Shown here piece by piece: positions 41,156-61,845 of a stretch of DNA of 64,000 nt. Source of the stretch: a virus; the IMG/VR virus record IMGVR_UViG_3300045988_174698. One strand, written 5' to 3'. The number at the start of each line of letters is the position of its first letter. Position 1 is the stretch's first letter. The notes beneath the pieces are model-generated. The model did no database searches. It saw nothing but the letters and a program-made list of their open reading frames with translations, and was not told where the DNA came from. A program made the translations under genes and the position numbers.

Positions 41156-41626
41156 TTAATTCTGTTTAATATCTTCCTTTGGATTGATTACTGTTGCAGC
41201 AATATTAGCATAACAATCTGCAAGTTCATTAAATTTATTATTATTGTGGCCTTTTAATCAAAAGAACTTTACTTTATGAAAGTGTAATAGATTAACTATT
41301 TTAACTCATAGATCCATATTCTTCTTTGAATTATCTTGCTCTGCAATTCATCTATATACATGACCATTGTTAATACTACTAACAATATAACTTGAATCAG
41401 AATATATTTCTAAATTCCTAGGTTCCTTAAAATATTCTAAGGAGTATAGAACTCCCATTAATTCTGCTCTATTGTTAGTAGTATGTATATAACCTTGATA
41501 TAAAATCTTAATTACTTTGTTGTCCTCAGTAATTATAGAGGCATAACCCCCTTGGTCTGTTGTTGGTTTGTAACTTCCATCAGTATAGATTCTAATCATC
41601 AATAATTTCAGCATCGTCAAACTCAA
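41156..41626 (-). CDS. rnhA: Ribonuclease HI (2 TGA codons aligning with conserved Trp)
   Basis: IYTDGSY..., TNNRAELMGV and IYSDSSY match RNase HI. After the TGA, ...R[W]IAEQ and FF[W]LKGH align to E. coli QWIHNW and EWVKGH. Confidence 0.7.
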
Positions 41627-44204: not shown

Positions 44205-44778
44205 TTATTGTTTATTAACAGTGTATCCATGATGTTCTAAAACTAGTTTACATAAGTTTAAGTACTCTTCTACAGTTAAATCACTTTTAGAATAATTAGC
44301 TGCAGGAGTTGTAATACCTAAATTTGATAAATCATTCGACCCGCCTTTAGAAACTGGTATTATATGATCAAAACAATAATCATCTTTTTCTAAATCAATA
44401 GGAGTGCCTGTTAAATAGCACTTTGTTTTTGTGCCAAATTTATTAATAATATCTAAAGTCTTAATTTTATTTAAACTCTTCATTCCTCTATTTTGAAAAT
44501 GTTCAATATATCTCCTTAAACGTTTACGTCATGTTCTATTAGAGATTCTTCTACATCCATGAGAGATTCTAGCACAAAAAGTACATAGTCTAGATTTAAT
44601 TCTCCCCTTAAGTGTATTACGTCATAATGAAGTAGATTTTCGTTGTTTACTATTAGTTATATCATTACAATAATATCCAACAATACTTTTGCTACATCCA
44701 AGTATCTTAGCAATTTCATTATAACTTTTATTATCACTTCTTAAAATAAGAATTTGTTCCTTTAACTTACTCATAATC
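44205..44778 (-). CDS. HNH endonuclease with N-terminal HTH (sigma-70 region-4-like) extension
   Basis: The C-terminal HNH motif is CYLTG...DHIIPVSKGGSNDLSNLG. Upstream in frame, through TGA codons, is SYNEIAKILGCSKSIVGYY. It starts 11 nt after the tRNA 3' end. Confidence 0.55.
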
Positions 44779-44788
44779 AACTTATTAG

Positions 44789-45226
44789 CACGAGCTCTCC
44801 GATTCGAACAGAGACCGTAGGGTTTGGAGCCCTACAATACGGTTTTGCTTACCACTATAGTTTTCACTACCAGTTTTACTGTTTGTAGTCTGGACTATAT
44901 CAGCTTGATATACAAGTGTGGCATTTAGTCTCTACACATTTATAGAGTAAAGTAGGATACATAGAGAAGTGTACGGCTTTAATTTTCGACCTACTAAGCA
45001 CTCCGCCTATTTTACACGGCATAAACAGCCTATGTTCTCTACTGTATTTTACTCTAATTTAGCTCGGTATTATCAGCTATCCATATTTCAGGACCTTAGA
45101 CTTTCTTAGAAAGCTGATTCGCATGATTTTTATCATCTTATTTCGCTTTTACCGAATTTGCCACAATTTTCACGCCAAGCGTGCTCCAATTCGAAGACCG
45201 CTGTGCTACCATTACACTAAGCTCGC
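44789..45226 (-). tRNA. Intron-containing tRNA gene; its 5' half (45226..45193) and 3' half (44848..44789) splice to a ~93-nt class-II-like tRNA with anticodon UCA; the alternative fold is tRNA-Trp(CCA)
   Basis: The acceptor pairs as GCGAGCT/AGCTCGT+G. The D-arm is GTGT-AATGGTA-GCAC and the T-arm is CTCTG-TTCGAAT-CGGAG. The 5' exon ends ...GCGGTCTT| (U) and the intron ends ...GTAAG| (G), giving the anticodon loop CTT|CAAA. The variable arm is GTAGGG-CTCCAAA-CCCTAC. Confidence 0.55.
44849..45192 (-). mobile_element. ORF-less group I intron (family R, copy 5) inserted in the anticodon loop of the tRNA gene
   Basis: Shared blocks are AGCTCGGTATTATCAGC and CCTATGTTCTCTACTG. The S-like element is GCTGATATAGTCCAGAC. 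The 3' end GTAAGCAAAACCG... resembles GATAACAAAATTG of copies 1-3. Confidence 0.5.
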
Positions 45227-45295
45227 ATTTATTATCTTTAGTTATACAGCAAAGATAACAAAAATCTGTGAACAATCAAAAATTTAATTAACAAA

Positions 45296-46501
45296 TTATA
45301 AAGAAAATTTGCGAATTTTGGTTAAATAAATCTCTTTACGATATTGGTTAACTCCACCATAGTCACCATAACTCATCTGCACTTTACGAAGATGGTATAG
45401 CTTACCTCCCTCTAATTTTAATTTATCTGCTATATCCTTTGGAAAAGTAAAATCAATAACCTTGTCAACTGTTATTTTTTTATAGTTACTATCCTTTGAA
45501 TTTATAACATATATTAAGAAAGCACTTAATATAAGCAGGTACCACTTAATTTCAGAGTAATCTGTAGTGGGTCTTAAAAATCTGAATTCTACAGTTTTAT
45601 GGGCATCACCTGAAATTAAATGCATTATATTCATATTAAAATATCTACCGTGCACTTCCCACTTACGCTCCTCTGTTGAATCATATGAATTAGGTAAATA
45701 AAAACTTTGGTCATCATTATACTTATTACCAGTGAACCTTTTGTAGAATGTAGGGAGAGATGCAATACTCGGAAAAGGTTTATTGTAAGCTTTACCATTA
45801 CTTTTATAGCGTTCTGTATAGTAACTATATCTTGGTATGTACATACTAATAGACCATTGAAAATGGCACCAGAACTTACACAGACGATTAATATAACTAT
45901 TATTAATTGGAAAGTTACCAAAATGAATATGCAAAGAGCAGTTTTTATCGTAAAACGTGTATCTTTCAAGCAGTTTCAAATGCTGTTTAATAATAGGTAA
46001 ATCTATATGTGTTAATGGAAAAGTTACATATTCATGCCCATTAATTGAACCATCATACAGTGGTACTAGATTTGTATCAATACAACTTAACCAAGGTATG
46101 TTTCCTGCGGATGTTTCATATTCAAGGCCAAAGGTAAAGTCTTCAATATATGTAAATTCTTTATCAGGTATTAATTTAATATACTTAGGTTTTAAAGATA
46201 GTTTTGAAAAATTGTAACATCTATCTATTGGATAATTAAACACATATTTAGAATCTGTAATGATATTATTAGATAGTTTTAAATCTATCGTATAGCAACA
46301 AATATTATTTACCCAATATAATGGTATTTTGCAGTTCTCGCGTCTTTCCAAATAGGTAATTTTCCCTTCTATTACTAGAGGAATATTTAGTGGGTCTATT
46401 TCAAAATAACCATATTCTATATATGCGTAATCAATATAGATCACACCTCTTAGTAAGGTATCTCCAGTTTCCCACCTTTTTTTAGTATTATTGTACAGCA
46501 T
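45296..46501 (-). CDS. Amidoligase-like (COOH-NH2 ligase) protein, paralog 2
   Basis: It has a HIHFG motif and lies in the amidoligase/GATase/ATP-grasp neighbourhood. Confidence 0.4.
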   Translation of the reverse strand: MLYNNTKKRWETGDTLLRGVIYIDYAYIEYGYFEIDPLNIPLVIEGKITYLERRENCKIPLYWVNNICCYTIDLKLSNNIITDSKYVFNYPIDRCYNFSKLSLKPKYIKLIPDKEFTYIEDFTFGLEYETSAGNIPWLSCIDTNLVPLYDGSINGHEYVTFPLTHIDLPIIKQHLKLLERYTFYDKNCSLHIHFGNFPINNSYINRLCKFWCHFQWSISMYIPRYSYYTERYKSNGKAYNKPFPSIASLPTFYKRFTGNKYNDDQSFYLPNSYDSTEERKWEVHGRYFNMNIMHLISGDAHKTVEFRFLRPTTDYSEIKWYLLILSAFLIYVINSKDSNYKKITVDKVIDFTFPKDIADKLKLEGGKLYHLRKVQMSYGDYGGVNQYRKEIYLTKIRKFSL

Positions 46502-47810
46502 CTAAATTAACAAGTCTATTAGTTATAAACTGTAAAATCTGTGTTTCTAGTACTTCAAAATCGAATGTTGTATTTTCTGCATTATTCTTGAAAATTTCAA
46601 AAGCGCTAGGAGCATAGGTATATGTTGTAGAACTTACTCCATCTTTTACATTAACTTTATCAGGAGCATTAAATAGAGTAACATATGATCCTTCCATGTA
46701 CTTCATATAATTGAAGTCTTTGTCAACAGTAGTTAAGACACCATTAATAATTCGAGGATTATATGCAAAGTAATCAATAACTTCGGGACAATAAACAGAA
46801 AGAACATCATTTGTAAAAAGGTCATCTATATTTTCAAGGAAATCATAACTTTCTTTATTGGGTAACAATCGCCCATAGAAGAAGTAGAAAGTATGTCTAT
46901 ATGCGTTAGAGCTGGCATATGCTTCGGGTACTAAATGCCCAGAAGGATAAGCTAGATACATACCGTGTGCTGGAATTTCATTTAACATATACGTACCTGT
47001 AGTTTGACTGTAATATAAGTTATTAGAGGTATATGCTGGGGAATTATCCTTATAAGAAGCACCATATACTGGTATGCAAAGGGTTCTCCTTAATTTTTCA
47101 CGATTAATATTTCTAATACAGTAAACCTTGTTATCCTTAATTCGGCATAACTTATTTACAGGAAATTCATAGATTGTTTTTTTACAGTTGATGGAATATA
47201 GAGAAGCATACATCGACGAAAAATAAAGTTTACCCTCGTTAATCATATAAACTAAAGGTCGCTCAGATTTTGTTTTGTTTTCATTATAACAAGAGCTCCC
47301 TTTGAACATGAGTACTTCTGGAGTCAAAGATCTATAATCTACCATTATAAGAACAGCACAACCTGTATATTCTTCTAGAACATCATATCCATGTTCATAA
47401 ATAATTTCTGCCAAAATTTGAGAATCAGACATACCAAGAGTATTAGGTTCTGGAAGATATTTATTAGATAATTCTCCAATATTAAGAATAGTACCATTAT
47501 GCATTAGTACAAACTCAATTTTGTTACCACGTCTAATAACAACTGGCTGAGCCTGATCTAAATTCACAGGATATCCAGGAGAGGCCTTTCGACAATGTAA
47601 TAAAGCAATAGAAGCTGACTTTGGATAATTTATACTAGTAGTAAAGTTCCTAAATAATTTTCTGTCACTGACTCCATATTCTACCTTACCATCAATAAAA
47701 ATACCACAACTATCTCCCCCTCTTTCATCGTTTAGGGTTCCAAGTATATTAAAGTGGTTTATGTTAAATTCAGTCTTTTCAGTAGAAATTATTCCAGCTA
47801 GTCCGCACAT
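46488..47810 (-). CDS. Class II (Ntn) glutamine amidotransferase-like protein
   Basis: The N-terminal MCGLAGI has the catalytic Cys2. Confidence 0.55.
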   Translation of the reverse strand: MCGLAGIISTEKTEFNINHFNILGTLNDERGGDSCGIFIDGKVEYGVSDRKLFRNFTTSINYPKSASIALLHCRKASPGYPVNLDQAQPVVIRRGNKIEFVLMHNGTILNIGELSNKYLPEPNTLGMSDSQILAEIIYEHGYDVLEEYTGCAVLIMVDYRSLTPEVLMFKGSSCYNENKTKSERPLVYMINEGKLYFSSMYASLYSINCKKTIYEFPVNKLCRIKDNKVYCIRNINREKLRRTLCIPVYGASYKDNSPAYTSNNLYYSQTTGTYMLNEIPAHGMYLAYPSGHLVPEAYASSNAYRHTFYFFYGRLLPNKESYDFLENIDDLFTNDVLSVYCPEVIDYFAYNPRIINGVLTTVDKDFNYMKYMEGSYVTLFNAPDKVNVKDGVSSTTYTYAPSAFEIFKNNAENTTFDFEVLETQILQFITNRLVNLDAVQ

Positions 47811-48589
47811 ATTCCATAAAGTTTAATTAGATGTTCTGCCAGTACTTTATTAGATGTATTAATACACTTTTGAACTAAATCTCCTTCTGGCAAAGGAAAT
47901 CCTTCATTAAACATATCTACAGCTAACATAGTTTGTTTATAAATCATTGGAAGGTATTTGTCATTAAGCATAAAGCTACTTAGACATCTTGCTTCTACTC
48001 CCCACTCAGGACAACGGAAACTTCCTGCTTGACCATATAGAGTTCTTCTAAAAGTATCTCTATCATATAATACAGAAGGAACTCCACAGCATAGATCAAA
48101 GAACTTAATAAGCTTAACAGATGTATCAAAATTAGGGTTATCATATCCTATGTGAATGTGTGAACCTGCCACTCTTCTATTATCAGGATAACCTTGTGGC
48201 TTATCGTTTTCACACTCTGTATAAGCATCATAATCACTAGAACATCCAATTTCATTTGCTTTAGGATCAAGTAATTGATCTTCAGGCACGGGCATAGATG
48301 CACTACAACAAATATCAAGATTGTTATCGAATTGTTTAACCCAATTACGAATCCAATCTTTCATATATTTAATAGAATCTACAAATTCATTACTAGAAGT
48401 ACAAGGTGGGATATTAAATTCTCCTAAAATACAGTCAATCTCCACACCAAATCCTTTTGGCATGCCTTTAGTATATGGTTTACCTTTTTCTCCTGGAATT
48501 ATTCCAATTGCAGATACTACTTGGTTTGTTTTTGTATTAAAAATAAATAACTCGGGGTCTGCTCCAACTGTAATATTTTTAATTTTCAT
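47798..48589 (-). CDS. Amidoligase-like (COOH-NH2 ligase) protein, paralog 1
   Basis: It has a GSHIHIGYD motif and is Cys-rich. Confidence 0.4.
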   Translation of the reverse strand: MKIKNITVGADPELFIFNTKTNQVVSAIGIIPGEKGKPYTKGMPKGFGVEIDCILGEFNIPPCTSSNEFVDSIKYMKDWIRNWVKQFDNNLDICCSASMPVPEDQLLDPKANEIGCSSDYDAYTECENDKPQGYPDNRRVAGSHIHIGYDNPNFDTSVKLIKFFDLCCGVPSVLYDRDTFRRTLYGQAGSFRCPEWGVEARCLSSFMLNDKYLPMIYKQTMLAVDMFNEGFPLPEGDLVQKCINTSNKVLAEHLIKLYGICAD

Positions 48590-49226
48590 CTGCTATTAAT
48601 TTATCAATTATTTCATTTATTCTTATAACAATTGGTGATTCAGGTCTCATATATTCAGGATGTCCTTGGATAGCCAAACACTTTGGAAGATTTGGTCTGT
48701 CATACAAAACAATTTCAGGTTCACAAGGAGGAGACATAACATTATCTCCCTCATATATACTTGACCGATGACTAGTTGAATAAAACAAACATGTCCAATA
48801 CTTATATGGTATTATAAATGGATACTGCATTTGATGGTGTGTACTGGTAATTTCATACATTTTATTCGTACTTATCTCTGTAATAGAGTGAGTTATTCGA
48901 ATAGCATGATTTTCCACATTCTGAATAAGTATGCCACCATTCATAATACATAAATATTGACTGCCTCGGCAGATCCCCACAGCTAACTGATCAGGTCTGA
49001 TTTTCTCAAATTCTTTCTTTTCTGCGAGATCCCTTTGTAAATTAGCACAAGTAGTAGGATGAGGTTTACAGTTATACAAAGAAGGGTGTACATCTTCTCC
49101 ACCTGTAAAAATAACAATATCTGCATCGTTAATATCATCTACTAGCTCACGCTTAGTAATAAAATTAGCATAGTGTACTTGATTACCAACGACATATACT
49201 TTTTTTGTTTTTAGCATAGTATTCAT
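48579..49226 (-). CDS. Class I glutamine amidotransferase-like / gamma-glutamyl hydrolase-like protein
   Basis: The nucleophile elbow is GICRGSQ and the C-terminal HPE is present. Confidence 0.5.
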   Translation of the reverse strand: MNTMLKTKKVYVVGNQVHYANFITKRELVDDINDADIVIFTGGEDVHPSLYNCKPHPTTCANLQRDLAEKKEFEKIRPDQLAVGICRGSQYLCIMNGGILIQNVENHAIRITHSITEISTNKMYEITSTHHQMQYPFIIPYKYWTCLFYSTSHRSSIYEGDNVMSPPCEPEIVLYDRPNLPKCLAIQGHPEYMRPESPIVIRINEIIDKLIADEN

Positions 49227-49881
49227 TCGCTATAAAATTAATTCCCTTGACAATTTGAGGTAATTGCTTCGAGTTAAATACTCGAAGCAAATGGCACAAA
49301 CTATTATGTTCAGCCATAATCCTACAAAAACTTTCACTATAGTTAAAGTCCCTTCTAATTAAATTAAACTGGCACTTAGGATTAATGTTATAAAATGTTA
49401 GGTTATCTAATCCTGGGCAATGACATCTTCTTCCATCATGAAACAATGTAATATAAAGTTGCATAATTTGAGTAATATCCAATTCTGGAAAGTTTGCTCT
49501 ATTTTGCCATGCAGAGTATAATAATAACCAAAACGGATTTTCGTATACATATCTAATATACATAGCACTATAGACAAAGAATCTATTGTCAGGAGCACAC
49601 CTAATTTGTAATTTGTATGAATGTGTACTCTTTACAAGTGATATTAATGTAAACCCCAGTAGTCTTGAGATTTCCTTAAAGTACTCAATTAATGTTTTCG
49701 TATCAAATGTACAGTAGTTAAGCTGAACTTGTCTACTTCGAGGCCATATAATAGTAGCATAATAATAACCATTAAATTCACCTTGAGAACATCCCCTACT
49801 AAAACAAGCCATATTTTCATAAAAGTAATTACCAGCATAGTAATTACATTTATATTCTTTTCCTCTAAAATCTAGTATCAT
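49183..49881 (-). CDS. Hypothetical Cys/His-rich protein
   Basis: ORF track only. Confidence 0.3.
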   Translation of the reverse strand: MILDFRGKEYKCNYYAGNYFYENMACFSRGCSQGEFNGYYYATIIWPRSRQVQLNYCTFDTKTLIEYFKEISRLLGFTLISLVKSTHSYKLQIRCAPDNRFFVYSAMYIRYVYENPFWLLLYSAWQNRANFPELDITQIMQLYITLFHDGRRCHCPGLDNLTFYNINPKCQFNLIRRDFNYSESFCRIMAEHNSLCHLLRVFNSKQLPQIVKGINFIANEYYAKNKKSICRW

Positions 49882-50608
49882 AGTACTTTTTTAAATGATT
49901 CCCATAATAAGTTATCCCAAAAGAAGCCAGAGAAGGAGCTGTATTACTTTCAACAATGATATAACTATTATCACTACACAATATATCAAAGCAGGCAATT
50001 GTGAGGTCCATTTGTTTTAATGCCTTAATACAATCACTAATTATATTTTCCCAACATACAGGTAATTTGTGTTCCTCTGTTACTAAAACAAATATTGAAT
50101 TATCAGCATGTTTATGCCATTGTACTTCAGCGTCTTGTTTCAGCACTTTTTTACAAGCATAAAAACAACCATGATGAACATCAATATGTACTCTATATTC
50201 ATTTGGGAAGAAGTAATACTTTTCAAACACGAAATCCCTTATATTAACATTATTACATAGATCGTCTAAAGATTTGGGATTATCAATATAATAAATATTC
50301 TTCCCTTTCGATGAATGTTTATGTTTTGCTATAAGAATTTTGTGCTGCATAAAAAACTTATAAATGCTTGCTTTGTTAGAAGAACTAATCCATTCACTAT
50401 GAGATACACCCGCTTTGTCAAAGGCACGCTTCATTAATATTTTATTCCCAGAAGTTTTAACTCCCTCTATAGTATTAATTTCCAAATATTTATATTTAGA
50501 AATTAAAGGAGTTGTGCTCCCTAAACGTAGTAGTACTCTTTGATTAAAAGGTATACTACGTAAAGGAGCACAACTTGTATTTGGACTGAAAACTCGAAGT
50601 TTTAACAT
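49865..50608 (-). CDS. ATP-grasp enzyme (RimK/GshB-like)
   Basis: ILMKRAFDKAGV... and IIVESNTAPSL resemble the ATP-grasp C-terminal region. Confidence 0.45.
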   Translation of the reverse strand: MLKLRVFSPNTSCAPLRSIPFNQRVLLRLGSTTPLISKYKYLEINTIEGVKTSGNKILMKRAFDKAGVSHSEWISSSNKASIYKFFMQHKILIAKHKHSSKGKNIYYIDNPKSLDDLCNNVNIRDFVFEKYYFFPNEYRVHIDVHHGCFYACKKVLKQDAEVQWHKHADNSIFVLVTEEHKLPVCWENIISDCIKALKQMDLTIACFDILCSDNSYIIVESNTAPSLASFGITYYGNHLKKYYDTRF

Positions 50609-50609
50609 A

Positions 50610-51152
50610 CTATAGTTCTAATGCCTTATTATAGCAGTACACAGCCAGTTCCTTCTGGGTTAACTTATTATAATCAGCAAATTCAGCCCCATGGTCCTGT
50701 AAAAGCTTTGCAATATACTGTAGTTCGTGTTTTTTTAGTTTGCTAAATTGAGTGGCCGAGAATTCTGCGACCTTCTTATCAAGAGCAATTAATTTGAGGA
50801 ATACTTTTCCAAATGGTTTATTATTAAATTTATTAATATATACCTTTTGGTCAATATTATCCTCTACTGGGATAGCTTTAGGTTCAGGGTTAGGAACAAC
50901 CTCGTCATATGGGATAATCATAAATTCAGGTACCCATATGCCTATAGATAGAAAATATGGAATATCTGGGTCATTCTTATCTACATCCTCAATAACAGCA
51001 ACATTACCAAAATAGGGAAAATCAGAAAATAAGACATATTTCATGTCTTTGTTACAATAAACACCTTCTAAGTCAGGTGCTTCCTTGAGTAGATTATCCT
51101 TAAGTAAACAATCAAGATTTTTAATGATAACTTTGTCTCCTTGTTCAAACAT
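50610..51152 (-). CDS. Hypothetical protein
   Basis: ORF track only. Confidence 0.3.
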   Translation of the reverse strand: MFEQGDKVIIKNLDCLLKDNLLKEAPDLEGVYCNKDMKYVLFSDFPYFGNVAVIEDVDKNDPDIPYFLSIGIWVPEFMIIPYDEVVPNPEPKAIPVEDNIDQKVYINKFNNKPFGKVFLKLIALDKKVAEFSATQFSKLKKHELQYIAKLLQDHGAEFADYNKLTQKELAVYCYNKALEL

Positions 51153-51166
51153 AACTATTTTTATTT

Positions 51167-52243
51167 TTATTTGAAAAATGATAAATATTCTAATGGACTA
51201 ACAATTCTATATTTAGTCTTTCTAAACTCTAAAAGGTCAAAAGAATCTGAATAACTCATCATTGACCTTAAGTAGTCAACGAAATTTTCACACCAATCTT
51301 GTAACTTATACAAAACTGGAACTGTGGTTTCAATACCCTCAGCAGTTTTGAGTTTTTGGTTTCCTATTTCTATCTGTGCTTTTTTAGTAGACATACCATA
51401 GTATTTACGTCTGAGTCCTAGATTTGGATCTGTAACAGGTAGTAACTCTCCACAGGCTTCTTGAGATTGTGCAAAGAGTTTTCCAACCATTACATAATCA
51501 GCTCCAAGAGCTAGTGCTTTAATAATCTTATCATAATTATCAAATCCTCCGTCCGCAATAATAAATGGAACACTTTTGTATGGATGAGTTATTGAGTTAC
51601 AACCCAAGTAAAAACCAGAGTCACCCGCTATATTAACTACTTTTGTTTCTTCAATACATTTTTCTATAGCCCGCTTTTTATCAACAACTTCCTTAATTAA
51701 GGAAGCCATTGCATAGTGTATTCCACCATTAGCAGAAGTAGTACATACAGAACCTCCCCCTACACCTATCCGTACAAAATCAATTCCTGCTAGTGAATAA
51801 TCAGCATAAGTATCAGGGTTAGCAATATTGCCCGCCATTAATGACAATCGACCTCCAAATATAGACTTTGCTTGTGAGCATAAATCAATTAACTTTAACA
51901 TGTGGCCATTAGCAATATCAACACACACATAACGAATATCATTGGTGGTATCATATATATTTTCAAAATCTGTAATAAATCTTTCAAACTCAGATAAGCC
52001 AAGTGCAACAAACGTACTTGTAGACAACTCCCATCGTTTATCATAATCTACTCCTCTTGGAATAATTGTATTGATCTTATTTCTAAGAAAAACTTCATAA
52101 TTATTCTCATTAATAACAGAATTCATAGGAGCAGTAAATAACGGCAGCATACCATCAAAGTTATATGGATTACAGTCTGCACGATGTTCTATTCTACTGG
52201 TTCTAGCTGGTACTAAACAAATATCATTTAACCCATATGTCAT
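51167..52243 (-). CDS. guaC: GMP reductase (IMPDH/GuaC family TIM barrel without CBS domains)
   Basis: CVDIANGH, GIDFVRIGVGGGSVCTTS, IIADGG and ALGADYVMVG are present. Confidence 0.7.
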   Translation of the reverse strand: MTYGLNDICLVPARTSRIEHRADCNPYNFDGMLPLFTAPMNSVINENNYEVFLRNKINTIIPRGVDYDKRWELSTSTFVALGLSEFERFITDFENIYDTTNDIRYVCVDIANGHMLKLIDLCSQAKSIFGGRLSLMAGNIANPDTYADYSLAGIDFVRIGVGGGSVCTTSANGGIHYAMASLIKEVVDKKRAIEKCIEETKVVNIAGDSGFYLGCNSITHPYKSVPFIIADGGFDNYDKIIKALALGADYVMVGKLFAQSQEACGELLPVTDPNLGLRRKYYGMSTKKAQIEIGNQKLKTAEGIETTVPVLYKLQDWCENFVDYLRSMMSYSDSFDLLEFRKTKYRIVSPLEYLSFFK

Positions 52244-52416
52244 TTTTAATCTCTCTTAATTAGTTTATTTTTCTGTTCCTCAGTATCCCTAAATTTTTTT
52301 ATTTTTCTTTTCTTATTTAGACGAGCAATCTCTTCCTCGTACCTATTATATTTATCCAATTGATTACCTCGAATAAATTTACCCATGATAAAAAACAGAA
52401 TTTCAATTTTGATTTA

Positions 52417-53199
52417 CTATTGAATCTCTAAAGTACCTGGTTCCAGTCCAAGTTCTTTCTCGACTTCTGCGATTGTTTTCTTTACAACCTTATTCTTTAC
52501 TTTTGGCCAAGCAACATCCATTTTTGTGTAATCACTAAGTTTAAAACAGTGTGGTGTTGGAACAAAAATCTTCTTAACTTGGTAGAAACTCCCATTTTTA
52601 GGGGAATTAAAGCATCCACTTAAATAACCCTTAATTTCTCCTTTATTGTTAACATAAACAATAGCTTTAGAAGAAATAATAAATCCAAAATACTCTTGAT
52701 CTTTAACTATTAACTGTACTATTCGCCCAGGTAAAAACTCAGACTTAAAATCATTATTAAGATTAGAATCTACCTTATTATCCTCAACCTTATTTTTTTC
52801 TTTACCTAGAATCTTTTCAAACTGGTCTATAATAGATATGTCATTTGATTTTAATTCAGGTGATTCAAGTAATTTTAATAGATTCTTTTCTGATTTTAAA
52901 ATAATATCACTATATAGAGCAAGTTTATTCTCTTCTATATCATTAATACCTAACTCTTTAAGGATAGTGTTGTCATCATCTGAACAGAAGATATCACTAT
53001 CTCCAGTAAGGTAATGAATATTCTGATTATATGTAACAACATAATAAGATCTTTTATCTGTATCAATTAAGATCTTATAAGGGTGTCCTGAAAGTAATAA
53101 AGATATACTTACCTTAGGATAGTTTAATGTATATCCGTATCTACTTAAGATAAACAAAATGGTATTTAAACTGTTACCATTATATAATAAATAACGCAT
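52417..53199 (-). CDS. Hypothetical protein
   Basis: ORF track only. Confidence 0.3.
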   Translation of the reverse strand: MRYLLYNGNSLNTILFILSRYGYTLNYPKVSISLLLSGHPYKILIDTDKRSYYVVTYNQNIHYLTGDSDIFCSDDDNTILKELGINDIEENKLALYSDIILKSEKNLLKLLESPELKSNDISIIDQFEKILGKEKNKVEDNKVDSNLNNDFKSEFLPGRIVQLIVKDQEYFGFIISSKAIVYVNNKGEIKGYLSGCFNSPKNGSFYQVKKIFVPTPHCFKLSDYTKMDVAWPKVKNKVVKKTIAEVEKELGLEPGTLEIQ

Positions 53200-53252
53200 A
53201 ATTTGATTTTTTTGTTCTTTTTAGTTAAAAAACAGTAACAAGTGAAGGCTCA

Positions 53253-54185
53253 CTATTCTTTTACTTCTATAATTTTATATACAGAATTTTGAGTATGAAA
53301 ATGATTTTTATCTACGATTTTAGTTACAGGTGAGGTTGAGAAGCGAAATCCAAGACAAGCTCGAAACCCTACAGTTATAGGTAGACTTAAATATCCTTGA
53401 GTAAGGTACCCTTTATTGATTCCATTTGGATGATGACCTGGCTTATAATTACAAGTATCAGTATCTTCTAACTTTTCAATCTGAACTTTAGTTTGTGCAG
53501 GATAACTACACACCTCATAATATAATTCACGTACACTCCTCAAAGTTTCCTCATGGTGATCATCTGATTCAGGTATTGATCCTTCACAATCACATTTCTT
53601 TAATAGTAGTAATGCTTCGAAGTCAATACACTCTAGATTATTAGCTAACCTTAGAATAGCCGACTTGATATCTCTTTGTTTTAAAATATAAAGAGGTTGC
53701 ATGTGACACCTTACCAAAGAAAGAATAGCTCTTTTGTACTGAGGTTTAATATCAGAAATATATGTATCTAAAATATGTTCAGCAATTGGAACTCCTTTAA
53801 TTGCATGGTCCTTACAGTGGTAAAGTCCATCTTCTCCCTTTTTTGTAGTAACTGGTTTACCTATATCATGTAATAGAGCAGCAAAGATTAGAATATTTCG
53901 ATAGTCCATGTCTTGAAAAAGTACTTCATTACTGTTTTCAATATGCTTCAACATACATTTTGTAACCATACAAGTATGGGTGAAAGCGTCTCCCTCTTTA
54001 TGCCAAAGTATATTCTGAGGAGTTTCTGACAACGCTTTAAATTCAGGAATTTTTAAAAGTTCATCCCAAAAGACAATATTAGTTTTTGGATCATAAATCA
54101 TATTATATAATAAGATTATAAGAGATAATAGTAGTAACAAATAAAATAGCTGAAGATTTTGCAAAATGTATAAAAGTTGAATCAT
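53253..54185 (-). CDS. HD-domain phosphohydrolase with N-terminal hydrophobic segment
   Basis: ILIFAALLHDIGKP is an HD motif. Confidence 0.55.
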   Translation of the reverse strand: MIQLLYILQNLQLFYLLLLLSLIILLYNMIYDPKTNIVFWDELLKIPEFKALSETPQNILWHKEGDAFTHTCMVTKCMLKHIENSNEVLFQDMDYRNILIFAALLHDIGKPVTTKKGEDGLYHCKDHAIKGVPIAEHILDTYISDIKPQYKRAILSLVRCHMQPLYILKQRDIKSAILRLANNLECIDFEALLLLKKCDCEGSIPESDDHHEETLRSVRELYYEVCSYPAQTKVQIEKLEDTDTCNYKPGHHPNGINKGYLTQGYLSLPITVGFRACLGFRFSTSPVTKIVDKNHFHTQNSVYKIIEVKE

Positions 54186-54582
54186 AATCCGACATTATTA
54201 GAGATCCTATAGTAATTGCAAATAAAAGGGCAATTGACACTATAAAAATATCTCTATACACTTTGTATGTTTTGTTATTAGATACTACCCACCCTTTAAG
54301 TTTATATGTTAATATAACACCAGGTTTGTTATGGTATATATGGTAATCTTCTGGAGTAGCCTCAAAACTAAGTATTTTATTAGTTTTTATATCTTTTGCA
54401 ATAAGATACATCTTACCATTAGTTTTATAGCCTCCAGATATCTTTTCTCCTCCTATAATCTCACATTGATATGGATTAGTATTTACATAGTTACTAAATT
54501 CAGAGTAATGTAGATTCAAACTTATAAGTATAACTACTATAGAAGGAACCCAATAAGCTAAAATTTTAGAAGGTATATCCAT
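54103..54582 (-). CDS. Membrane protein
   Basis: Two hydrophobic segments. Confidence 0.3.
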   Translation of the reverse strand: MDIPSKILAYWVPSIVVILISLNLHYSEFSNYVNTNPYQCEIIGGEKISGGYKTNGKMYLIAKDIKTNKILSFEATPEDYHIYHNKPGVILTYKLKGWVVSNNKTYKVYRDIFIVSIALLFAITIGSLIMSDYDSTFIHFAKSSAILFVTTIISYNLII

Positions 54583-54583
54583 T

Positions 54584-55006
54584 TTATATCCATGTCTTTA
54601 AAGCTTCCAAAAAAGCTGATTCTAAAGCTTCTTCATATGTATTATAATCTACTCCACTTGCATCTATACTATGAGGAGGTCTTACAATTTTCTTAGAAGG
54701 ATCTATCTGAATATCAACGATTTTATATGTCCAATATCCATGAATAGTGGGAACTATTATAATATGTATCTTATGAATATCTCTTAACCATTTTTGAAGT
54801 TTAGATTGAGTTGGAGCTAAATAATAATTATCTGTAGGATCATAAAACTTACAATTCCAAAGCACTCCTTTTTCATCATAACAAGGGCTACAATTTACAT
54901 ATCCTAATTTTGGAAATAGTTTAGATATTCTATTTCCATCCATATAATGTTTTTCCTTTGCAAGTTTAGCAGTATCAAAAGTAATATGTGATTCCATTAT
55001 TCCCAA
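54584..55006 (-). CDS. Hypothetical protein
   Basis: ORF track only. Confidence 0.3.
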   Translation of the reverse strand: MGIMESHITFDTAKLAKEKHYMDGNRISKLFPKLGYVNCSPCYDEKGVLWNCKFYDPTDNYYLAPTQSKLQKWLRDIHKIHIIIVPTIHGYWTYKIVDIQIDPSKKIVRPPHSIDASGVDYNTYEEALESAFLEALKTWI

Positions 55007-55642
55007 GGTAAAATTTTCTGAGTTATTCTTTTATAGTTATTTAATATTCCTAAGATGTTTGCTCGACCTACAGGATTTGCAGATTGACTTGCAAACTGTG
55101 GAAGGACATATCCTTCATCTATACATTTATCTACAATATACTTGGCTATATCGTATCCAGATTTTTCCTCTCCTAAATCATGATCGAGACAAATTGCATA
55201 AGGTCATTCTTTTTCAAGGAAGTCAATAGCTTCTTGATAAGACTGAGCCCATACAACTTTACAATTTCTGCCAATTGGACTAAAATTCATCCAATCATCT
55301 TCCATTGGATTACGAGCATCATCTATCCAAAAAAGTGTTTTCATAATCATCTAATTCTTAAATGAGAAAGTAAATTAAAAACTATTAATATAATACAAGC
55401 CATAGTTGGAATAAAGTTTAAAGGAGTCCAAATGAGTATTATAAAGACAAAGCTACTAATATATTTATCCTCAGTATAGTATAAATACATATCTCCTAGA
55501 GTAGTTCCTTCTTTAGATTTTATCCTCCAATAAACGTAGAGAATAATATGATTAATAATTATACATACAAACCAGCAATATACAAATTCCATAATTATAT
55601 TTTATTTAAATGAAATTTTCACTACCTAATTATTTATAAAAG

Positions 55643-55714
55643 TATCCCCACCTTGATTCGAACAAGGACCTTTCGGGTAGAAGCCGAAGATTCTCTCCAT
55701 TGAACTATGGGGAC
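55643..55714 (-). tRNA. tRNA-Arg (anticodon UCU)
   Basis: Cloverleaf: the acceptor is GTCCCCA/TGGGGAT, the anticodon arm is TTCGG-CTTCTAC-CCGAA, and the T-arm is CCTTG-TTCGAAT-CAAGG. Confidence 0.7.
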
Positions 55715-57926
55715 TAAATAAATAGTTTATCTTACTATTTATATAAATATTATTATTAAAGTTTTTGAATATTCTTCATAAAAACTCTAGTAATAATATC
55801 TATATTCATCTTACATTGCTCAAATATATCTATTTTATAAGAATCTTTCAGTGGGCTATCCTCTTTGTATGGCCAATGTGCAATTATAAATTCATATTCA
55901 CATCTAGCCCAGTATTGATACATTAATTTTCTCGTTACAAAATCCTTACACTGCTCAAAATTTTCTTTAGAAGGTTTATCTGCTTTATAAGCATCATTAT
56001 ACTTTCTAACTAGGTAAGGCATTATATCATAATAGGTTGGTTTATTTTTATTATATTCTAACCATAATACTTTGAATGGTATCATAAATTTTACTATTAC
56101 AATTTTTCACCTAAATAATTAACTTCTATAACATTTAAATAGTTAACTTTAAATGGATAATCATCAACTATAGTATTATACTGTATACAAACACTTCTTT
56201 TATCTGTATCATGAAAGCAAGATACAACATGATTGAAATTGATATTACAGTTATATCCTTCACCTATAATATTAATAATATTTATCTTTTTCATATTGTA
56301 TTTATGTAAAAGCTCTTAGTAATAAAATCTTAACTTAAAATTCTAAGTGGTTTTTATACTTGGCAGCACATCGAAGAAACCTATATGGATCCTTTATAAA
56401 AATGCGTTTTATATTAGGATTTAAATGGCTAAGATCTGGGTAAAAACAAAAAAAGCCAAACTTACCTGTATCATCTAAAACAACAACAGAGCTCTGGATT
56501 TTATTACCTTTCATGTATATCTGAACGTCGAAATATGGCCTATACCCAAGTTTAACTAGACTGCTGTAAAATAAAAGGAATTGTTTAGATAATATTATAG
56601 TATATGGATATTCTTTCATTATAGTAGTGAATTAATTATTAAGATAGCTTTTTTACTGTCATAACGACCCTTGTAATCAGATTTAGGTATAATATTCAAT
56701 ACCTTATTGACAATATTCTCACCACTAGTAGCATATAATGCTCCACTTGGATGATAAAAATCATGTCGTAAATCTACAACAATTAATGTACGCTTCATAT
56801 AGTTAAATTAAGCATAATAAAATTTGAATAAAGTGTAGACTTTGATCAATATAATATGAAGTAAAATCCTTCATATACTTTTTATAAAGTCCTCTACACT
56901 TCCAGTAATCAATAGCATAATGTCCAACTAGTAACATTATTAATTTCCAAATTGCAGCTAATCCCAAAAAGTGTAATGCAATATAAATACCTAACGCCCA
57001 AATTGCACAATGTACAAACAAGACATAATTATTTTCACATTTATACTTCTTACAAAACTCATCTTGCAACGGATAGTCTAAAACTAAATTTAGAAAGTAA
57101 AGTATAATAAAATTTATCATTATCTAATCTTTATTTTTGAGAACAAACTTCCAATATCTAAGAAGATTTGTATTATCAATACAATAGTATTTACTACAGG
57201 AACCCATATTAAAAGGAAGATCCAATCATTATCTTGATCTACATAAAAAGAATAAAGATCACCTATTGTGCTTCCACACTTGTCTTCTTCAATCCAATCA
57301 AAATACAGGGAAACGTGTAAATAAACAACTCCTATTAGATAAATACCTAAAATAATTAAAAATGTATACATATTAATCCAGTTTTTCCCAGCATTCTTGA
57401 TCAAAATTCCAATGTCTAATATCACAAATATTAAACTCGAAACATAATCCAAGAATGCCGATATTAAAACAAAAGCCTGCATGATCCCCTTTATTATTAT
57501 AACTAATATGGAAATCAAGCAAGCCAAATGTATTGATGTTTATAAACAAATAATAACAAATACCAAATAGTTGAATATCAAAGTCAAAAAATTTTGATAA
57601 CTTAAAGATTTTAAATCTAATAGACATTTCTAATGATTTAAACTCTCCTATAGGGTGCACAAACACCCACCACAAAAAATCTAATTTACAAAGCTTCATA
57701 TTTTTCTTAAATTAGAGTAATAAGCGGTTATAGACTATACTTCTAATTTGGGTTAATAACTAATATTATTGTAATACTTTATATCTTCAATATAAGTTTT
57801 CTGTGTATCTCCAGTAGGCCCTATCATAATATTAGGTTTTATTGTTCCGCATGATATATTAAGTATTACTAAGACTATTATAACTATTTTTACTATTGTT
57901 TTCATCTTTATGTTATTAATGTTTAG

Positions 57927-57999
57927 AGTAGGTAACAGGATTCGAACCTGTGATATAGCTTTTGCAGAGCTGGGCCTTAACCAACTTGGCGATACCTAC
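57927..57999 (-). tRNA. tRNA-Cys (anticodon GCA)
   Basis: The acceptor is GTAGGTA/TACCTAC, the T-arm is CAGG-TTCGAAT-CCTG, and the anticodon loop is CTGCAAA. Confidence 0.65.
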
Positions 58000-58004
58000 A
58001 TGTG

Positions 58005-58095
58005 CGGTAAGGGTGGGATTCCAACCCACGCAGCGATTTCTATACGCTCTAATGCATTTCAAGTGCATCCTCTTAAAGCTCTTGAGTACCTTACC
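58005..58095 (-). tRNA. tRNA-Ser (anticodon UGA), class II with long variable arm
   Basis: The acceptor is GGTAAGG/CCTTACC+G, the anticodon arm is ATGCA-CTTGAAA-TGCAT, the T-arm is GTGGG-TTGGAAT-CCCAC, and the variable arm is 22 nt. Confidence 0.65.
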
Positions 58096-58133
58096 AAATT
58101 TATCTATCTATAAACTTTCTAGTAAGTTATTTG

Positions 58134-58206
58134 CTGGACCGATAGGATTCGAACCCACGTTACCCAAATTAACAGTTTGGTGCTTAAACCACTCAGCCAC
58201 AGTCCA
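58134..58206 (-). tRNA. tRNA-Asn (anticodon GUU)
   Basis: The anticodon arm is CCAAA-CTGTTAA-TTTGG, the T-loop is TTCGAAT, and the acceptor is TGGACTG/CGGTCCA (one G-U pair). Confidence 0.6.
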
Positions 58207-58358
58207 GTACATTTTATATATTTATTACAGATAACTCTGCAAAAGTATTTGCAGAAATATTATAAATTAATTAGTCGAGAATGATAGTAATGCTCTATCC
58301 CCTAGAAATCCCAAATTTCTCGTGCTACTTCCACACCCCATTCTCGATAAACTATCCT

Positions 58359-58592
58359 TTATTCAAGGATAGCGTTTAATTTTGCAAGAACACCTTCGTT
58401 TTTCTTACGAATGTTTTCAAGAGCTTCTTTTTCAGCTTGAGCTGCTTTGATTTCCTCGTCTCTTGCTGCAATTTCTAATTCTGCAGAAGCATTTACTTCT
58501 TTAAGACCATCAATTGCAGTTTTGAAAGCATTTAAAACATTGTCTACTTTCTTAGACAGATCTACAGATGTTTTACTTTTTGAATTAAACAT
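58359..58592 (-). CDS. Small coiled-coil protein
   Basis: ORF track only; the sequence is charged and helical. Confidence 0.3.
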   Translation of the reverse strand: MFNSKSKTSVDLSKKVDNVLNAFKTAIDGLKEVNASAELEIAARDEEIKAAQAEKEALENIRKKNEGVLAKLNAILE

Positions 58593-58639
58593 GTTTAATA
58601 GTTTTTTAAATTAATGCTGTGAGGAGATTTTTGGGACCC

Positions 58640-58711
58640 CCAATAATAGTGAACCATATGAGACTCGAACCCCTCTATTTCCTTGCAAAGGAAATGTGCT
58701 CGCCTTTACAC
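58640..58711 (-). tRNA. tRNA-Ala (anticodon UGC); T-stem and acceptor contain G-U pairs or mismatches
   Basis: The anticodon arm is TTTCC-TTTGCAA-GGAAA, the T-loop is TTCGAGT, and the acceptor is GGGCCAT/ATGGTTC. Confidence 0.5.
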
Positions 58712-58941
58712 TACATGGCCCAAAATACTTAAAGTTTAATACGAAATTGTCTTATTTTATTACATATTTTACAACGCTGTATATAAACTTTTTCAACTTT
58801 AACTGGGCGACTTTGATAGTCATTTTCAAACACCTTTTTTAATTTTTCTTCAACTGTCTCCCAATCATGTACATGAAATTTCAATTCAAACCATTTCTTT
58901 ATAAGTTCTAACATATTATAAAGTTTTTAATAAAATTTTAG

Positions 58942-59024
58942 AGCCTCCTGTCGGACTCGAACCGACGCGTTCAAATGAAGACGGATTACAAAACCGTTGC
59001 AGTCGCCGCTGTGCCAAGGAGGCT
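58942..59024 (-). tRNA. Class-II-like tRNA (83 nt, 15-nt variable region); the anticodon loop TTTTGTAAT is readable as UGU (Thr) or GUA (Tyr)
   Basis: The acceptor is GCCTCCT/AGGAGGC and the T-arm GTCGG-TTCGAGT-CCGAC is perfect. The anticodon stem is ACGG/CCGT. Confidence 0.5.
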
Positions 59025-59998
59025 TATAAACACTATCGTAGTTTGCACGTCTGATTTTTATTGCCACAGAAACTCCATACAAATGATCAATTTATATGTT
59101 AAGAGTTGTTACGCCGCTAATGTCAAATTTAGAAATAACTTATAATGACATAAATTGGTTATAGTTATCCTTGTATCCTATAGAAGTATTCACAAGAAGC
59201 TCGCCATGCATGCTTCTACCAGGCATTGGCACCATAAAGTCATTTCCATATATGTTAGTTAAAACACTTAAATATACTTCTGGAGCAGGAAACATTCCTC
59301 ACTCAAATTTAAGGTAAACCTTATTGTTATAGTCTCTAGCGTTTCTAAGACTTTGTATCTTATTTGGAAATGTAAGATTACCAAATGACTCTGTGGAGAG
59401 TACATTATATCGTTGTCGTAGCTCTTGATATTTTTCTCTAAGATATAAAAGTCTAGATGTGTTTTCCTTAGAAGAATCATAACATTGTATTCTTGTTTTT
59501 ACAGCCAGTGCTTCTAGTTTAATTAAGTGAAGCTGGTGCATAAACTTTTGTCTCTCAACTAGATCATCTGGAACATTATCAAAAGGACATATATCTATAA
59601 AGATCCCTTGGTTAAAGGTAAAATGACCTTCTAAATCCTTTTTGTGAATACATGTTGTGTCACTTCTTCTTAACTTCGTACAGCAATAAAAGGTACTGTC
59701 TGTTCAGTCATTTTGAACAAAATATGGATAATTCAACTCTTTAACTGCACACTCTAAAAATCTATCATAGTCTGTTCTAGGCATAGCAATATCAATATCA
59801 TCGTCCCATGGAATAAATCCACCATGTCTGACAGCACCAAGTAATGTTCCTCCATCTAAATAGTGCTTCAAATGATATTTATCACAGATATTTTTAAACT
59901 GTCATAGCAAATCTAGCTCAACTCCTCAAAGTTCTTTTCTTTCTTTAGACACCAAGAATCCATTTTTTACTTCTGCTTCAAAAAAGTTATCTGGTAAT

Positions 59999-60679: not shown

Positions 60680-60882
60680 ACACTTAATCTTATACTCTTT
60701 TTCTTTTAATACTAGTTAATACACTAAAATAAAGATTCATTTCTATTCCTAAAGTAAAGGATAGTACATAGTACTATTACCACAAACCAGATAAAAAGAA
60801 ATAGTAATATTAGACAGTTAATTAGTACTGTTGCCATAGTATTATTTATTATATGTGAGAAATATTTATTTAATTTTAATAG

Positions 60883-61824: not shown

Positions 61825-61845
61825 AAGTTAAAAAGATTTTTGTGT

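Follow-up and report, generated by a model that had tools for sequence, protein, structure and literature searches.

The 64,000-nt stretch of viral DNA analysed here (IMG/VR record IMGVR_UViG_3300045988_174698; hereafter the window) contains, at 44789..45226 on the minus strand, a 438-nt locus that very likely supplies the phage with its own opal suppressor, a tRNA that decodes UGA; the gene is split by a group I intron predicted to be self-splicing. Removal of the intron would yield a 92-nt tRNA with a tryptophan-like class I body, a UCA anticodon arm and a fifth arm, the loop of which, CUCCAAA, is identical to the anticodon loop of tRNA-Trp(CCA). The occurrence of such a split tRNA far exceeds what chance would produce: seven IMG/VR contigs contain the same split gene, and more than 100 distinct sequences have the same architecture, with all helices covarying. 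Individual related loci are referred to below by L numbers.

Read from 45226 to 44789, the precursor consists of two exons flanking a 346-nt intervening sequence; its limits were obtained from an intron search with ARAGORN and computed coordinates, and those of the exons from the sequence and its alignment with relatives, 42 in the case of the 5′ exon. The 5′ exon (33 nt, 45194..45226) contains the acceptor strand GCGAGCU, U8 and A9, the D-arm GUGU-AAUGGUA-GCAC (45203-45217), A26 and the 5′ half of the anticodon arm, GCGGU-CUU; it ends at U34 and its terminus reads ...GCGGUCUU|. The intron (44848..45193) was recognized from a sub-threshold match to the Rfam family RF00028, the similarity of its core and its comparative structure. 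It carries no open reading frame (ORF), starts with C (45193) and ends in ...GUAAG|, the last base being the omega-G (44848). The 3′ exon (59 nt, 44789..44847) opens with CAAAACCGU and comprises, in order, C35, A36, A37 and A38, ACCGU, an AUU linker, the variable-arm hairpin GUAGGG-CUCCAAA-CCCUAC (44817..44835, with its loop at 44823-44829), GGU, the T-arm CUCUG-UUCGAAU-CGGAG (44797-44813), AGCUCGU and G73 (44789). The D-arm and T-arm, read from the sequence, lie on the minus strand, at the coordinates given in the original prediction. The acceptor stem and G73 that it described are also present, but GCGAGCU and AGCUCGU form six Watson-Crick pairs and a G1·U72 wobble, not seven canonical pairs. 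No CCA end is encoded after the gene; CTA follows instead.

With default settings, ARAGORN reported seven tRNAs in the window, all between 55.6 and 62.3 kb and none at the split-tRNA locus. Similarly, Rfam at its gathering thresholds returned those seven tRNAs and a transfer-messenger RNA (tmRNA), with no match at the locus. When introns were allowed, a check that had been suggested at the outset, ARAGORN returned c[44788,45226], a cloverleaf that has a long variable arm and is interrupted by ~344 nt. The intron placement given by the program, cttcg|...|caaaa, which would produce a 'tRNA-Ala(cgc)', was rejected: the tool applies eukaryotic rules and miscalled the anticodon.

Comparative data support a predicted splice junction between U34 and C35, with UCA as the anticodon of the product. 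An internal guide sequence, 5′-UUGGAG-3′, was read from the intron at 45184..45189. In helix P1, C32, U33 and U34 together with the first base of the intron, C1, pair with G-A-G-G of this guide, such that a U34·G wobble occupies the 5′ splice site. P10 joins the guide's UUG to C35-A36-A37 at the start of the 3′ exon; its length is 3 bp in the window and, for most relatives, 2-3 bp. The guide is complementary to the ligated CUU|CAA and this complementarity, together with the terminal G of the intron, fixes the anticodon loop as CUUCAAA and the anticodon as UCA.

A pattern search with the 5′ exon recovered many relatives that have different introns after ...GGUCUU. Eighteen distinct introns of 207-633 nt, belonging to two types, were extracted. 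In every one of them, the insertion follows U34, GGAG is conserved in the guide, the last base is G (in AAG, ACG or AGG) and the 3′ exon starts with CAAAAC. Intron boundaries are classically proved by a natural intron-less allele that matches the product predicted for ligation. In the present family, the mature sequences of L146, which has a 605-nt intron, and L016, which has none, are identical, and the exons of L082 (with intron) and L036 (without) differ by 1 nt. Thus, the original prediction held with respect to the U before the 5′ splice site, the terminal G, the 34/35 junction and the UCA anticodon; the U·G pair, the invariant omega-G and a single guide that provides both P1 and P10 are as expected of group I splicing.

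A group I catalytic core comprising P3, P4, P6, a bulged P7, P8 and the joining segment J8/7 was located within the intron, with P3 and P7 in pseudoknot pairing. The P2 hairpin, CACGC-UUG-GCGUG, is at 45171..45183; one of its C-G pairs is U·G in L064 and L065. P3 is formed by UGUGGCA (45159..45165) and UGCCACA (44917..44923), and P4 by UUCGGU (45151..45156) and ACCGAG (45063-45068), with a P5 extension between the two strands. P6, UAGAGUAAA / UUUACUCUA (44943..45056; from the RNAalifold consensus), closes a peripheral extension of ~100 nt in which several internal pairs show compensatory changes. The 5′ strand of P7, G(A)GACU with a bulged A (44927..44932), pairs with AGUCC at 44892-44896, and this helix is presumed to bind guanosine. 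P8, CUUG-UAUAU-CAAG (44904..44916), was assigned from the Rfam scan and by hand. The segment at 44892..44903, consisting of J8/7 (CUGAUAU) and the 3′ strand of P7, matches the RF00028 consensus GAUAUAGUC as well as phage introns in blastn searches; this is the 'S-like element' noted at the outset. Finally, the 3′ domain (44849..44889) is bounded by a P9.0-like helix, ACUAC (44885-44889)/GUGGU (44851-44855), that encloses P9a, CAG-UAAAA-CUG, and P9b, GUAGU-GAAA-ACUAU, the latter with a GNRA loop. Two unpaired As (44849-44850) separate the GUGGU strand from the omega-G.

Comparison of the two intron types indicated that these helices are maintained by compensatory changes. Type B introns, which include that of the window, are 341-360 nt long and have no ORF; type A introns have a 207-nt core and, in the longer ones, the P1 loop holds an ORF. 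The 3′ domain is common to both types, and P2, P3, P7 and P9 covary between them. More specifically, P2 covaries extensively in type A introns, where it has a GAAA loop; P7 reads GAGACU/AGUCC, GAGAGUA/UACUCC or GAGAGCA/UGCUCC across intron types; and P9 reads GUAGU/ACUAU versus GCAGU/ACUGU. Among type B introns, P3 shows compensatory double changes in two pairs (UGUGGCA/UGCCACA, UAUGGCA/UGCCAUA and UAUAGCA/UGCUAUA), and the P9.0-like helix varies as ACYAC/GURGU. According to RNAalifold, five type B introns contain 10 pairs with compensatory double changes, including two in P3 and one in P9.0. The program recovers P2, P3, P4, P6, P9 and P9.0 but mis-pairs P7 and P8 and cannot draw the P3/P7 pseudoknot; P7 and P8 were therefore assigned by hand and by comparison of intron types. 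Compensatory changes in P2, P3, P6, P7, P9 and P9.0, together with the intron-less alleles, corroborate the boundaries first proposed for the intron, which we infer to be self-splicing.

The segment spanning P7, the 3′ strand of P3, P8 and J8/7 matched group I introns of other phages in blastn searches: introns in the DnaB genes of crAss-like phages, which contain GIY-YIG genes, an intron in the capsid gene of a Pelagibacter phage, and one in a tRNA-Arg gene annotated as 286 nt long in a Microcoleus phage. RF00028 was also below threshold, at 15.7 bits, on the shortest relative intron, of 207 nt. A 2026 survey states that divergent tRNA introns escape RF00028, and places 81% of the tRNA introns of bacteria in subgroup IC (PMC13011429). 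In one related phage, a different group I intron (L065:3660-3925, minus strand) scored 84 bits with RF00028. Since this second intron exceeds the cut-off, these genomes carry several introns, of which only those in the tRNA escape the model.

The spliced 92-mer folds into a five-arm cloverleaf with a minimum free energy of −34.1 kcal/mol, and ARAGORN, using genetic code 4, identifies it as tRNA-Trp(tca). After splicing, the anticodon arm is GCGGU-CUUCAAA-ACCGU, with a 7-nt loop, U33, A37 and the anticodon UCA. A UCA anticodon reads UGA and, by wobble, UGG. The body is of class I and resembles tRNA-Trp, with a 4-bp D stem, a 7-nt D loop (AAUGGUA) and G73. The last is invariant in the family, in which A1-U72 is found in 36 of 43 members; G5-C68 is present in the window tRNA. 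The determinants of Trp identity in bacteria are the anticodon, G73 and the pair 1-72 (PMC9976931), and the G73 and predominant A1-U72 of the family accord with them.

Relatives of the mature tRNA were collected with two kinds of pattern. The first, which specified the UCA loop, the CCA loop and the T-loop, found ~22 intron-less relatives and was biased toward the motif. Unbiased patterns, which constrained only the D-arm and the UCA loop, were run over viral and metagenome contigs and yielded 103 distinct intron-less tRNA(UCA) sequences, 92 of them with a variable region of 21-28 nt and 11 with a loop of 4-5 nt. In an alignment of 43 members, including that of the window, 98.7% of the cells were paired and 20 of the 26 pairs had double changes, values that none of 500 shuffles matched. 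The intron-less tRNA of L016 scored 56.2 bits with RF00005 (cut-off of 29). The GGU that precedes the T stem is conserved and corresponds to positions 46-48 of the four-arm relatives, indicating that the hairpin is an insertion in the variable loop and a true variable arm, as in the five-arm fold first proposed. The viral loci that were fetched comprise 34 five-arm genes without an intron, 27 five-arm genes with an intron and 11 four-arm genes.

In ARAGORN output, five-arm members that lack the intron appear as tRNA-SeC(tca), for example at L016:13002-13098 and ~30 other loci, as well as in L184, L163, L221 and L158, and catalogues probably hold many five-arm suppressors under this wrong name. 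A scan of genome collections found members of the family in bins of metagenome-assembled genomes and in a Bacteroides neonati contig; the pattern used required UCCAAA, so the scan is uninformative on conservation, and it mainly caught genuine tRNA-Sec genes that contain UCCAAA in their arm loop by chance. The B. neonati gene (L184:2950-3043, minus strand, on a 1.48-Mb contig of strain MS4) encodes a five-arm tRNA(UCA) of another lineage with an apparent 4-bp anticodon stem, UAGU/ACUA. It adjoins genes for the small and large subunits of terminase, the large one being disrupted by an IS4-type transposase, and probably lies in a prophage. Its presence in this contig fits standard-code Bacteroidota as hosts.

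The similarity of the variable-arm loop to the anticodon loop of tRNA-Trp extends to the entire family. UCCA occurs in the apical loop of all 92 relatives with a long variable region recovered by the unbiased search (CUCCAAA in 49, GUCCAAA in 19 and other forms in the rest), distributed over 67 distinct variable regions with differing stems. The hairpin is 5-6 bp long with linkers of 3-5 nt, and all five stem pairs scored in the 43-member alignment show double changes. These comparative data indicate that the UCCA loop is under selection throughout the family.

A parallel was found in the tRNA-Ile(UAU) genes of phages. In a search that constrained the anticodon arm only, nine of nine distinct sequences had a variable-arm loop of the form (C/U)(A/U)GAUAA, on stems that covary (CGA/UCG, CAA/UUG, CGC/GCG and CUA/UAG). 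The GAU in this loop is the anticodon of the major tRNA-Ile. Such genes are located at L039:11311-11401(+), L067:5569-5659(-), L123:7445-7536(-), L116:1957-2046(-) and L080:6045-6138(-), and in L398-L406; L039 also holds a five-arm tRNA(UCA). Among isotypes of the same loci that do not belong to class II, long arms are concentrated in tRNAs with the anticodons UCA (30/39) and UAU (6/21), and none of four amber-type tRNAs (CUA) has one.

Because Trp identity includes the anticodon, replacement of C34 with U removes a major determinant for the tryptophanyl-tRNA synthetase (TrpRS) of a standard-code host. The sole invariant feature of the variable arm is the very element that was lost, flanked as in the original loop (U33-C-C-A-A37), which suggests that the extra arm helps charging with Trp. 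We put at roughly even the chance that the copied CCA loop gives the host TrpRS the identity element lost by the decoding arm. In the original prediction, a Trp anticodon-loop mimic was offered as speculation; the family-wide comparison and the tRNA-Ile(UAU) parallel lend it strong comparative support. The data also raise the prospect of a general design in gut phages, whereby a change at position 34 of the anticodon (CCA to UCA, to read UGA; GAU/LAU to UAU, to read AUA) would be compensated by a copy of the cognate loop as a variable arm, such that the host TrpRS or isoleucyl-tRNA synthetase (IleRS) still charges the tRNA. The UCA arm would often serve as a homing site for group I introns, which would hide the suppressor from annotation, tie the code switch to a ribozyme, and explain many 'missing' suppressors. 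We consider this broader scheme to be evenly poised between right and wrong.

Codon usage and protein alignments confirm that the genome is UGA-recoded, as initially claimed. Treating TGA as a sense codon raised the long-ORF coverage of the window from 0.62 to 0.84, as compared with only 0.65 for TAG. In the RNase H gene (41156-41614), each of the three in-frame TGA codons coincides with a position that is Trp in solved structures of RNase HI. For a 1466-amino-acid protein (1761-6161), the homologues found are only 25% identical and come from unannotated human-gut phage records; 3 of 12 aligned TGA codons align to W in such a homologue, a rate similar to that of its TGG codons (2 of 6). The predicted genes of the window contain 77 in-frame TGA codons. 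On the minus strand, 1 TGA and 44 TGG codons occur in the 16 genes upstream of the tRNA gene (45296-58000), versus 54 TGA and 80 TGG in the 45 genes downstream. Codon use changes exactly at the tRNA gene (Fisher p=1.4e-7), TGA making up ~40% of Trp codons downstream. Together, these data indicate that in-frame TGA is read as Trp. TGA is almost never a stop in the window, and only 1 of 16 ORFs of the upstream block has TGA when ORFs are delimited by TAA and TAG alone; this near-absence of TGA stops fits their loss before or during recoding. ORF coverage under code 4 versus code 11 did not separate loci that have the four-arm tRNA(UCA) from those with the five-arm form, since TGA appears to be recoded in both. 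No other tRNA(UCA) or tRNA-Trp gene was found in the window by ARAGORN with default settings or with the intron search, and no class I synthetase motifs (HIGH/KMSKS) were detected there. Pfam and PHROGs searches of the neighbouring genes revealed nucleotide and amide-ligase metabolism and no translation factors.

The ORFs of type A introns encode PD-(D/E)XK endonucleases (PF11645, E=2e-17) or HNH-like proteins. Those in the introns of L074, L090, L091 and L086 start 16-28 nt past the 5′ splice site and contain one or two in-frame TGA codons; the intron ORF looks degraded in L086, L109 and L142. In the window, a free-standing HTH-HNH endonuclease gene (44205..44774, minus strand; PHROG 6050 HNH, E=5e-21; Pfam HNH_4/HTH_38) begins 15 nt past the end of the tRNA gene and, with two in-frame TGA codons, is the first of the recoded genes. 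In the relative L003, a different sequence is found directly downstream of the tRNA, in the place of this gene. The HNH protein may be a mobility factor that mobilizes the ORF-less intron by 'collaborative homing'. Given the in-frame TGA codons, translation of the intron ORFs and of the free-standing HNH gene would need the spliced suppressor tRNA. Overall, the intron is polymorphic between near-identical tRNAs, occurs in two types associated with three kinds of endonuclease gene, and has the most conserved sequence of the family as its target; most probably, it is a selfish mobile element whose homing site is the conserved anticodon loop.

A promoter-like motif of the Bacteroidota type, TTTG-N19-TAtcTTTG, lies at 45250..45280 on the minus strand, ~24 nt upstream of the 5′ end of the tRNA, and is a lead only. 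TTTG-N19-TAnnTTTG, which we take to be the Bacteroidota promoter consensus, occurs seven times in the window versus 3.2 expected, and six of the seven are just upstream of gene starts. A scan for sigma-70 promoters and intrinsic terminators around the tRNA gene found nothing exceeding chance. Just upstream of the tRNA, at 45227-45262 on the minus strand, is an 8-bp hairpin, UUAUCUUU...AAAGAUAA, that has two compensatory changes in L001-L007 (CUACCUUU...AAAGGUAG) and a loop, GCUGUAUAACU, that is conserved; the promoter-like TAnnTTTG element overlaps the 5′ arm of this hairpin. The standard-code block directly upstream (45296-49226, minus strand) encodes an amidoligase, a class II glutamine amidotransferase-like protein, a COOH-NH2 ligase and a peptidase C26, followed further upstream by a GMP reductase/IMPDH-like protein (51170-52243) and an HD-domain protein (53256-54185). 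This block looks like a metabolite or modification cassette. The tmRNA gene (RF00023, 52 bits; 61842-62263, minus strand) lies beside the array of seven tRNA genes (55642-60957, minus strand), which specify Arg, Cys, Ser, Asn, Ala, Thr and Gln; a large tRNA array is also combined with a tmRNA in L081, L082 and L090. In a megablast search, the 10 kb around the locus had no match among INPHARED phages.

We propose the following mechanism. The gene lies where the block of standard-code genes ends, and a promoter of its own probably drives its transcription. The 438-nt precursor would fold such that UUGGAG pairs with C32-U33-U34 to form P1 with its U34·G wobble; after attack by guanosine, the same guide would pair with C35-A36-A37 to form P10, and the omega-G at 44848 would direct exon ligation. 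The resulting five-arm tRNA, presumably charged with Trp by TrpRS, would allow the in-frame TGA codons of downstream and opposite-strand genes to be read as tryptophan. Its CCA-loop arm may be presented to the host TrpRS, thereby separating charging identity from decoding. The suppressor would be non-functional until the ribozyme has acted. Code switching would thus depend on self-splicing, as a side effect of the intron.

Several findings weigh against this interpretation. P1 and P10 are short in the intron of the window, at just 3+1 bp and 3 bp, respectively. The RF00028 search that had been suggested as a check failed to reach its threshold: a permissive scan gave 18.5 bits (E=0.033; cut-off of 50). 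RF00005 gave only 16.6 bits on the unspliced gene, on its 5′ half (cut-off of 29). L001-L007 are near-identical, so that covariation for the exact intron of the window depends on L064 and L065. The window tRNA has G1·U72 in place of the A1-U72 of most relatives. With respect to the function proposed for the fifth arm, the 11 of 103 relatives noted above do with an ordinary variable loop of 4-5 nt, and the variable arms of the tRNA-Ile(UAU) genes have only 3-4 bp. In addition, a variable arm leaves the tRNA core in such a way that its loop cannot occupy the position of the anticodon. Finally, the window represents 64 kb of a genome of ~130-175 kb, and a second suppressor or a phage TrpRS could lie elsewhere.

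Alternative products of the locus were weighed against the same data. From the CCA hairpin onward, the gene can be read as the normal 3′ part of a tRNA-Trp with a 4-nt variable loop, CGGU, and it had been suggested that the mature product might be an ordinary tRNA-Trp(CCA), the UCA hairpin being removed with the intron. This product would require a 5′ splice site after A26 that has neither a U·G pair nor a guide, whereas the guide observed fits CUU|CAA. Moreover, the 92 distinct intron-less relatives keep both hairpins, with nothing that could remove the first, and the gene family tracks TGA-recoded loci. The UCA arm is therefore part of the mature tRNA in these relatives; the CCA fold is refuted, and its probability is very small. 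Even smaller is that of a selenocysteine tRNA, which we regard as negligible despite the UCA anticodon, G73, the long variable arm and the tRNA-SeC(tca) calls made by ARAGORN on relatives. The acceptor and T stems are of 7 and 5 bp, and the D stem of 4 bp, versus the 8/5 arrangement (a 13-bp acceptor/T domain) and 6-bp D stem of tRNA-Sec; TGA is frequent and aligned with Trp; and the genuine tRNA-Sec genes of the genome scan look different. A long variable arm could instead confer class II identity, such that seryl-tRNA synthetase (SerRS) charges the tRNA, UGA is read as serine and the sequence of the loop is incidental. SerRS reads the size of the extra arm rather than its sequence, together with G73 (PMC9976931), which the window tRNA has, and a variable arm can override the anticodon, as in the nev-tRNAs of nematodes (PMC3333845). 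Nevertheless, in class II tRNAs a long arm goes with a 3-bp D stem, an enlarged D loop and a Ser, Leu or Tyr anticodon, whereas the window tRNA combines its long arm with a 4-bp D stem, a 7-nt D loop and the anticodon UCA, which is a class I D-arm on a Trp-like body. In RNase H and the 1466-amino-acid protein, moreover, conserved Trp residues are matched by TGA codons. A determinant based on size alone would also leave unexplained why UCCA is retained in 92 of 92 relatives on varying stems, and why the arm of tRNA-Ile(UAU) carries a GAU anticodon rather than being generic. Charging with serine is accordingly improbable, albeit less so than the two preceding products.

It is also conceivable that the locus is a dead remnant, a suppressor inactivated by a selfish intron that no longer splices. 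Such an intron might lack an endonuclease gene, score poorly with RF00028 and be polymorphic in the family, as this one does. By contrast, the exons are intact and canonical, the core helices are maintained by compensatory changes, the split gene is conserved in seven contigs, and the 77 in-frame TGA codons of the window have no other decoder in view. We judge decay to be quite unlikely, slightly more so than charging by SerRS. Of greater weight is the possibility that the CCA loop is read by a partner other than TrpRS: an enzyme that modifies anticodon loops, a host defence nuclease that targets tRNA and for which it is a decoy, or another factor that binds tRNA-Trp. Alternatively, after a conformational switch, the hairpin might serve as a second decoding arm for dual reading of UGA and UGG. 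Conservation shows only that some partner reads U-C-C-A-A, and the geometric obstacle to synthetase binding leaves room for others, as does the hairpin of 5-6 bp with flexible linkers of 3-5 nt. However, UCA already reads UGG by wobble and the 3-4-bp stems of the Ile arms are too short for decoding, both of which argue against a second decoding arm, and the Pfam and PHROGs searches linked no nuclease or modification gene to the tRNA in the window. Importantly, the synthetases for Trp and Ile both rely on the anticodon, and both anticodons are altered at position 34, a coincidence that rescue of identity fits best. We thus consider another reader of the loop to be unlikely but to be taken seriously, and retain TrpRS as the favoured partner.

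If correct, the proposal that these genes are split or five-arm suppressors provides a candidate class for the 'missing' suppressors of recoded phages, in that split members are invisible to default ARAGORN and Rfam searches and intact ones are mislabelled as tRNA-SeC. A family model that is aware of the intron could be applied to phage catalogues at once. How a phage gets a standard-code TrpRS to charge a UCA tRNA becomes a hypothesis that can be tested by mutation of the invariant CCA-loop arm, and the parallel between tRNA-Ile(UAU) and its GAU loop suggests a general rule. A natural separation of synthetase recognition from decoding would be useful in engineering the genetic code. Finally, a ribozyme within the suppressor and intron endonuclease ORFs that depend on UGA decoding would add a regulatory layer to code switching in phages.

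Group I introns in anticodon loops, suppressor tRNAs of recoded phages, tRNA-Trp(UCA) of code 4 and identity elements in variable arms are all already known. In bacteria and plastids, the tRNA introns of cyanobacterial tRNA-Leu(UAA), Azoarcus tRNA-Ile(CAU), Synechocystis tRNA-fMet, which is associated with I-Ssp6803I, and tRNA-Asn and tRNA-Asp of Patescibacteria are likewise self-splicing introns of the anticodon loop with a very short P1 and P10. The insertion site, 34/35, is shared with the tRNA-Leu(UAA) intron, and the small core resembles that of Azoarcus (AAAUUCGG..., GUGUAGAGACUA...), although the assignment to subgroup IC3 was made by eye and not with a subgroup model. Relatives of the window intron carry PD-(D/E)XK (PF11645) genes, a further likeness to known tRNA introns, and RF00028 misses the window intron as it does other tRNA introns (PMC13011429). 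The present intron differs from those of cellular sense tRNAs in that its host gene would be a phage opal suppressor. It also differs from known tRNA introns in that several endonuclease ORFs of its relatives contain in-frame TGA, and in that the window copy is ORF-less and has a free-standing HNH gene adjacent to it.

In recoded gut phages (crAss-like, Lak, Jade, Agate and others; Borges et al., Yutin et al.), a suppressor has been found in only ~35-40% of genomes, and in ~35% of TGA-recoded ones, and divergent suppressors that cannot be detected have been suspected. The present system resembles these phages in having a phage tRNA(UCA), in the use of TGA for Trp mainly in a subset of genes, in its standard-code host and in the location of the tRNA gene at the border of the recoded block. 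The suppressors in those papers are ordinary and detectable with tRNAscan, unlike the split five-arm gene. The tRNA-Trp(UCA) of Mollicutes and mitochondria (code 4) also has UCA on a Trp body with G73 and reads UGA and UGG. However, that tRNA has four arms and a co-evolved TrpRS, whereas the window tRNA has five arms and presumably uses the TrpRS of a standard-code host. A literature search, beyond the reach of which lay most subscription journals, found no description of a suppressor tRNA split by a group I intron, nor of a variable arm in which the loop of the cognate anticodon is copied.

The chance that a new mechanism of tRNA identity is embodied in the arm is substantial. Class II tRNAs (Ser, Leu and Tyr), nev-tRNAs, allo-tRNAs and engineered aptamer-tagged tRNAs also have five arms, with the variable arm as a synthetase determinant or proposed determinant. 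In all of these, it is the size and orientation of the arm that count, whereas the window tRNA has a sequence-exact copy of the cognate loop on a class I body. Hairpins that copy an anticodon loop and engage the anticodon-binding domain of a synthetase occur in the operator of the E. coli thrS mRNA, which is bound by threonyl-tRNA synthetase (ThrRS), and in viral tRNA-like structures. These mimics are located in an mRNA or at the ends of viral genomes, where they function in regulation and replication; by analogy, that of the window would act from within a tRNA that itself takes part in translation.

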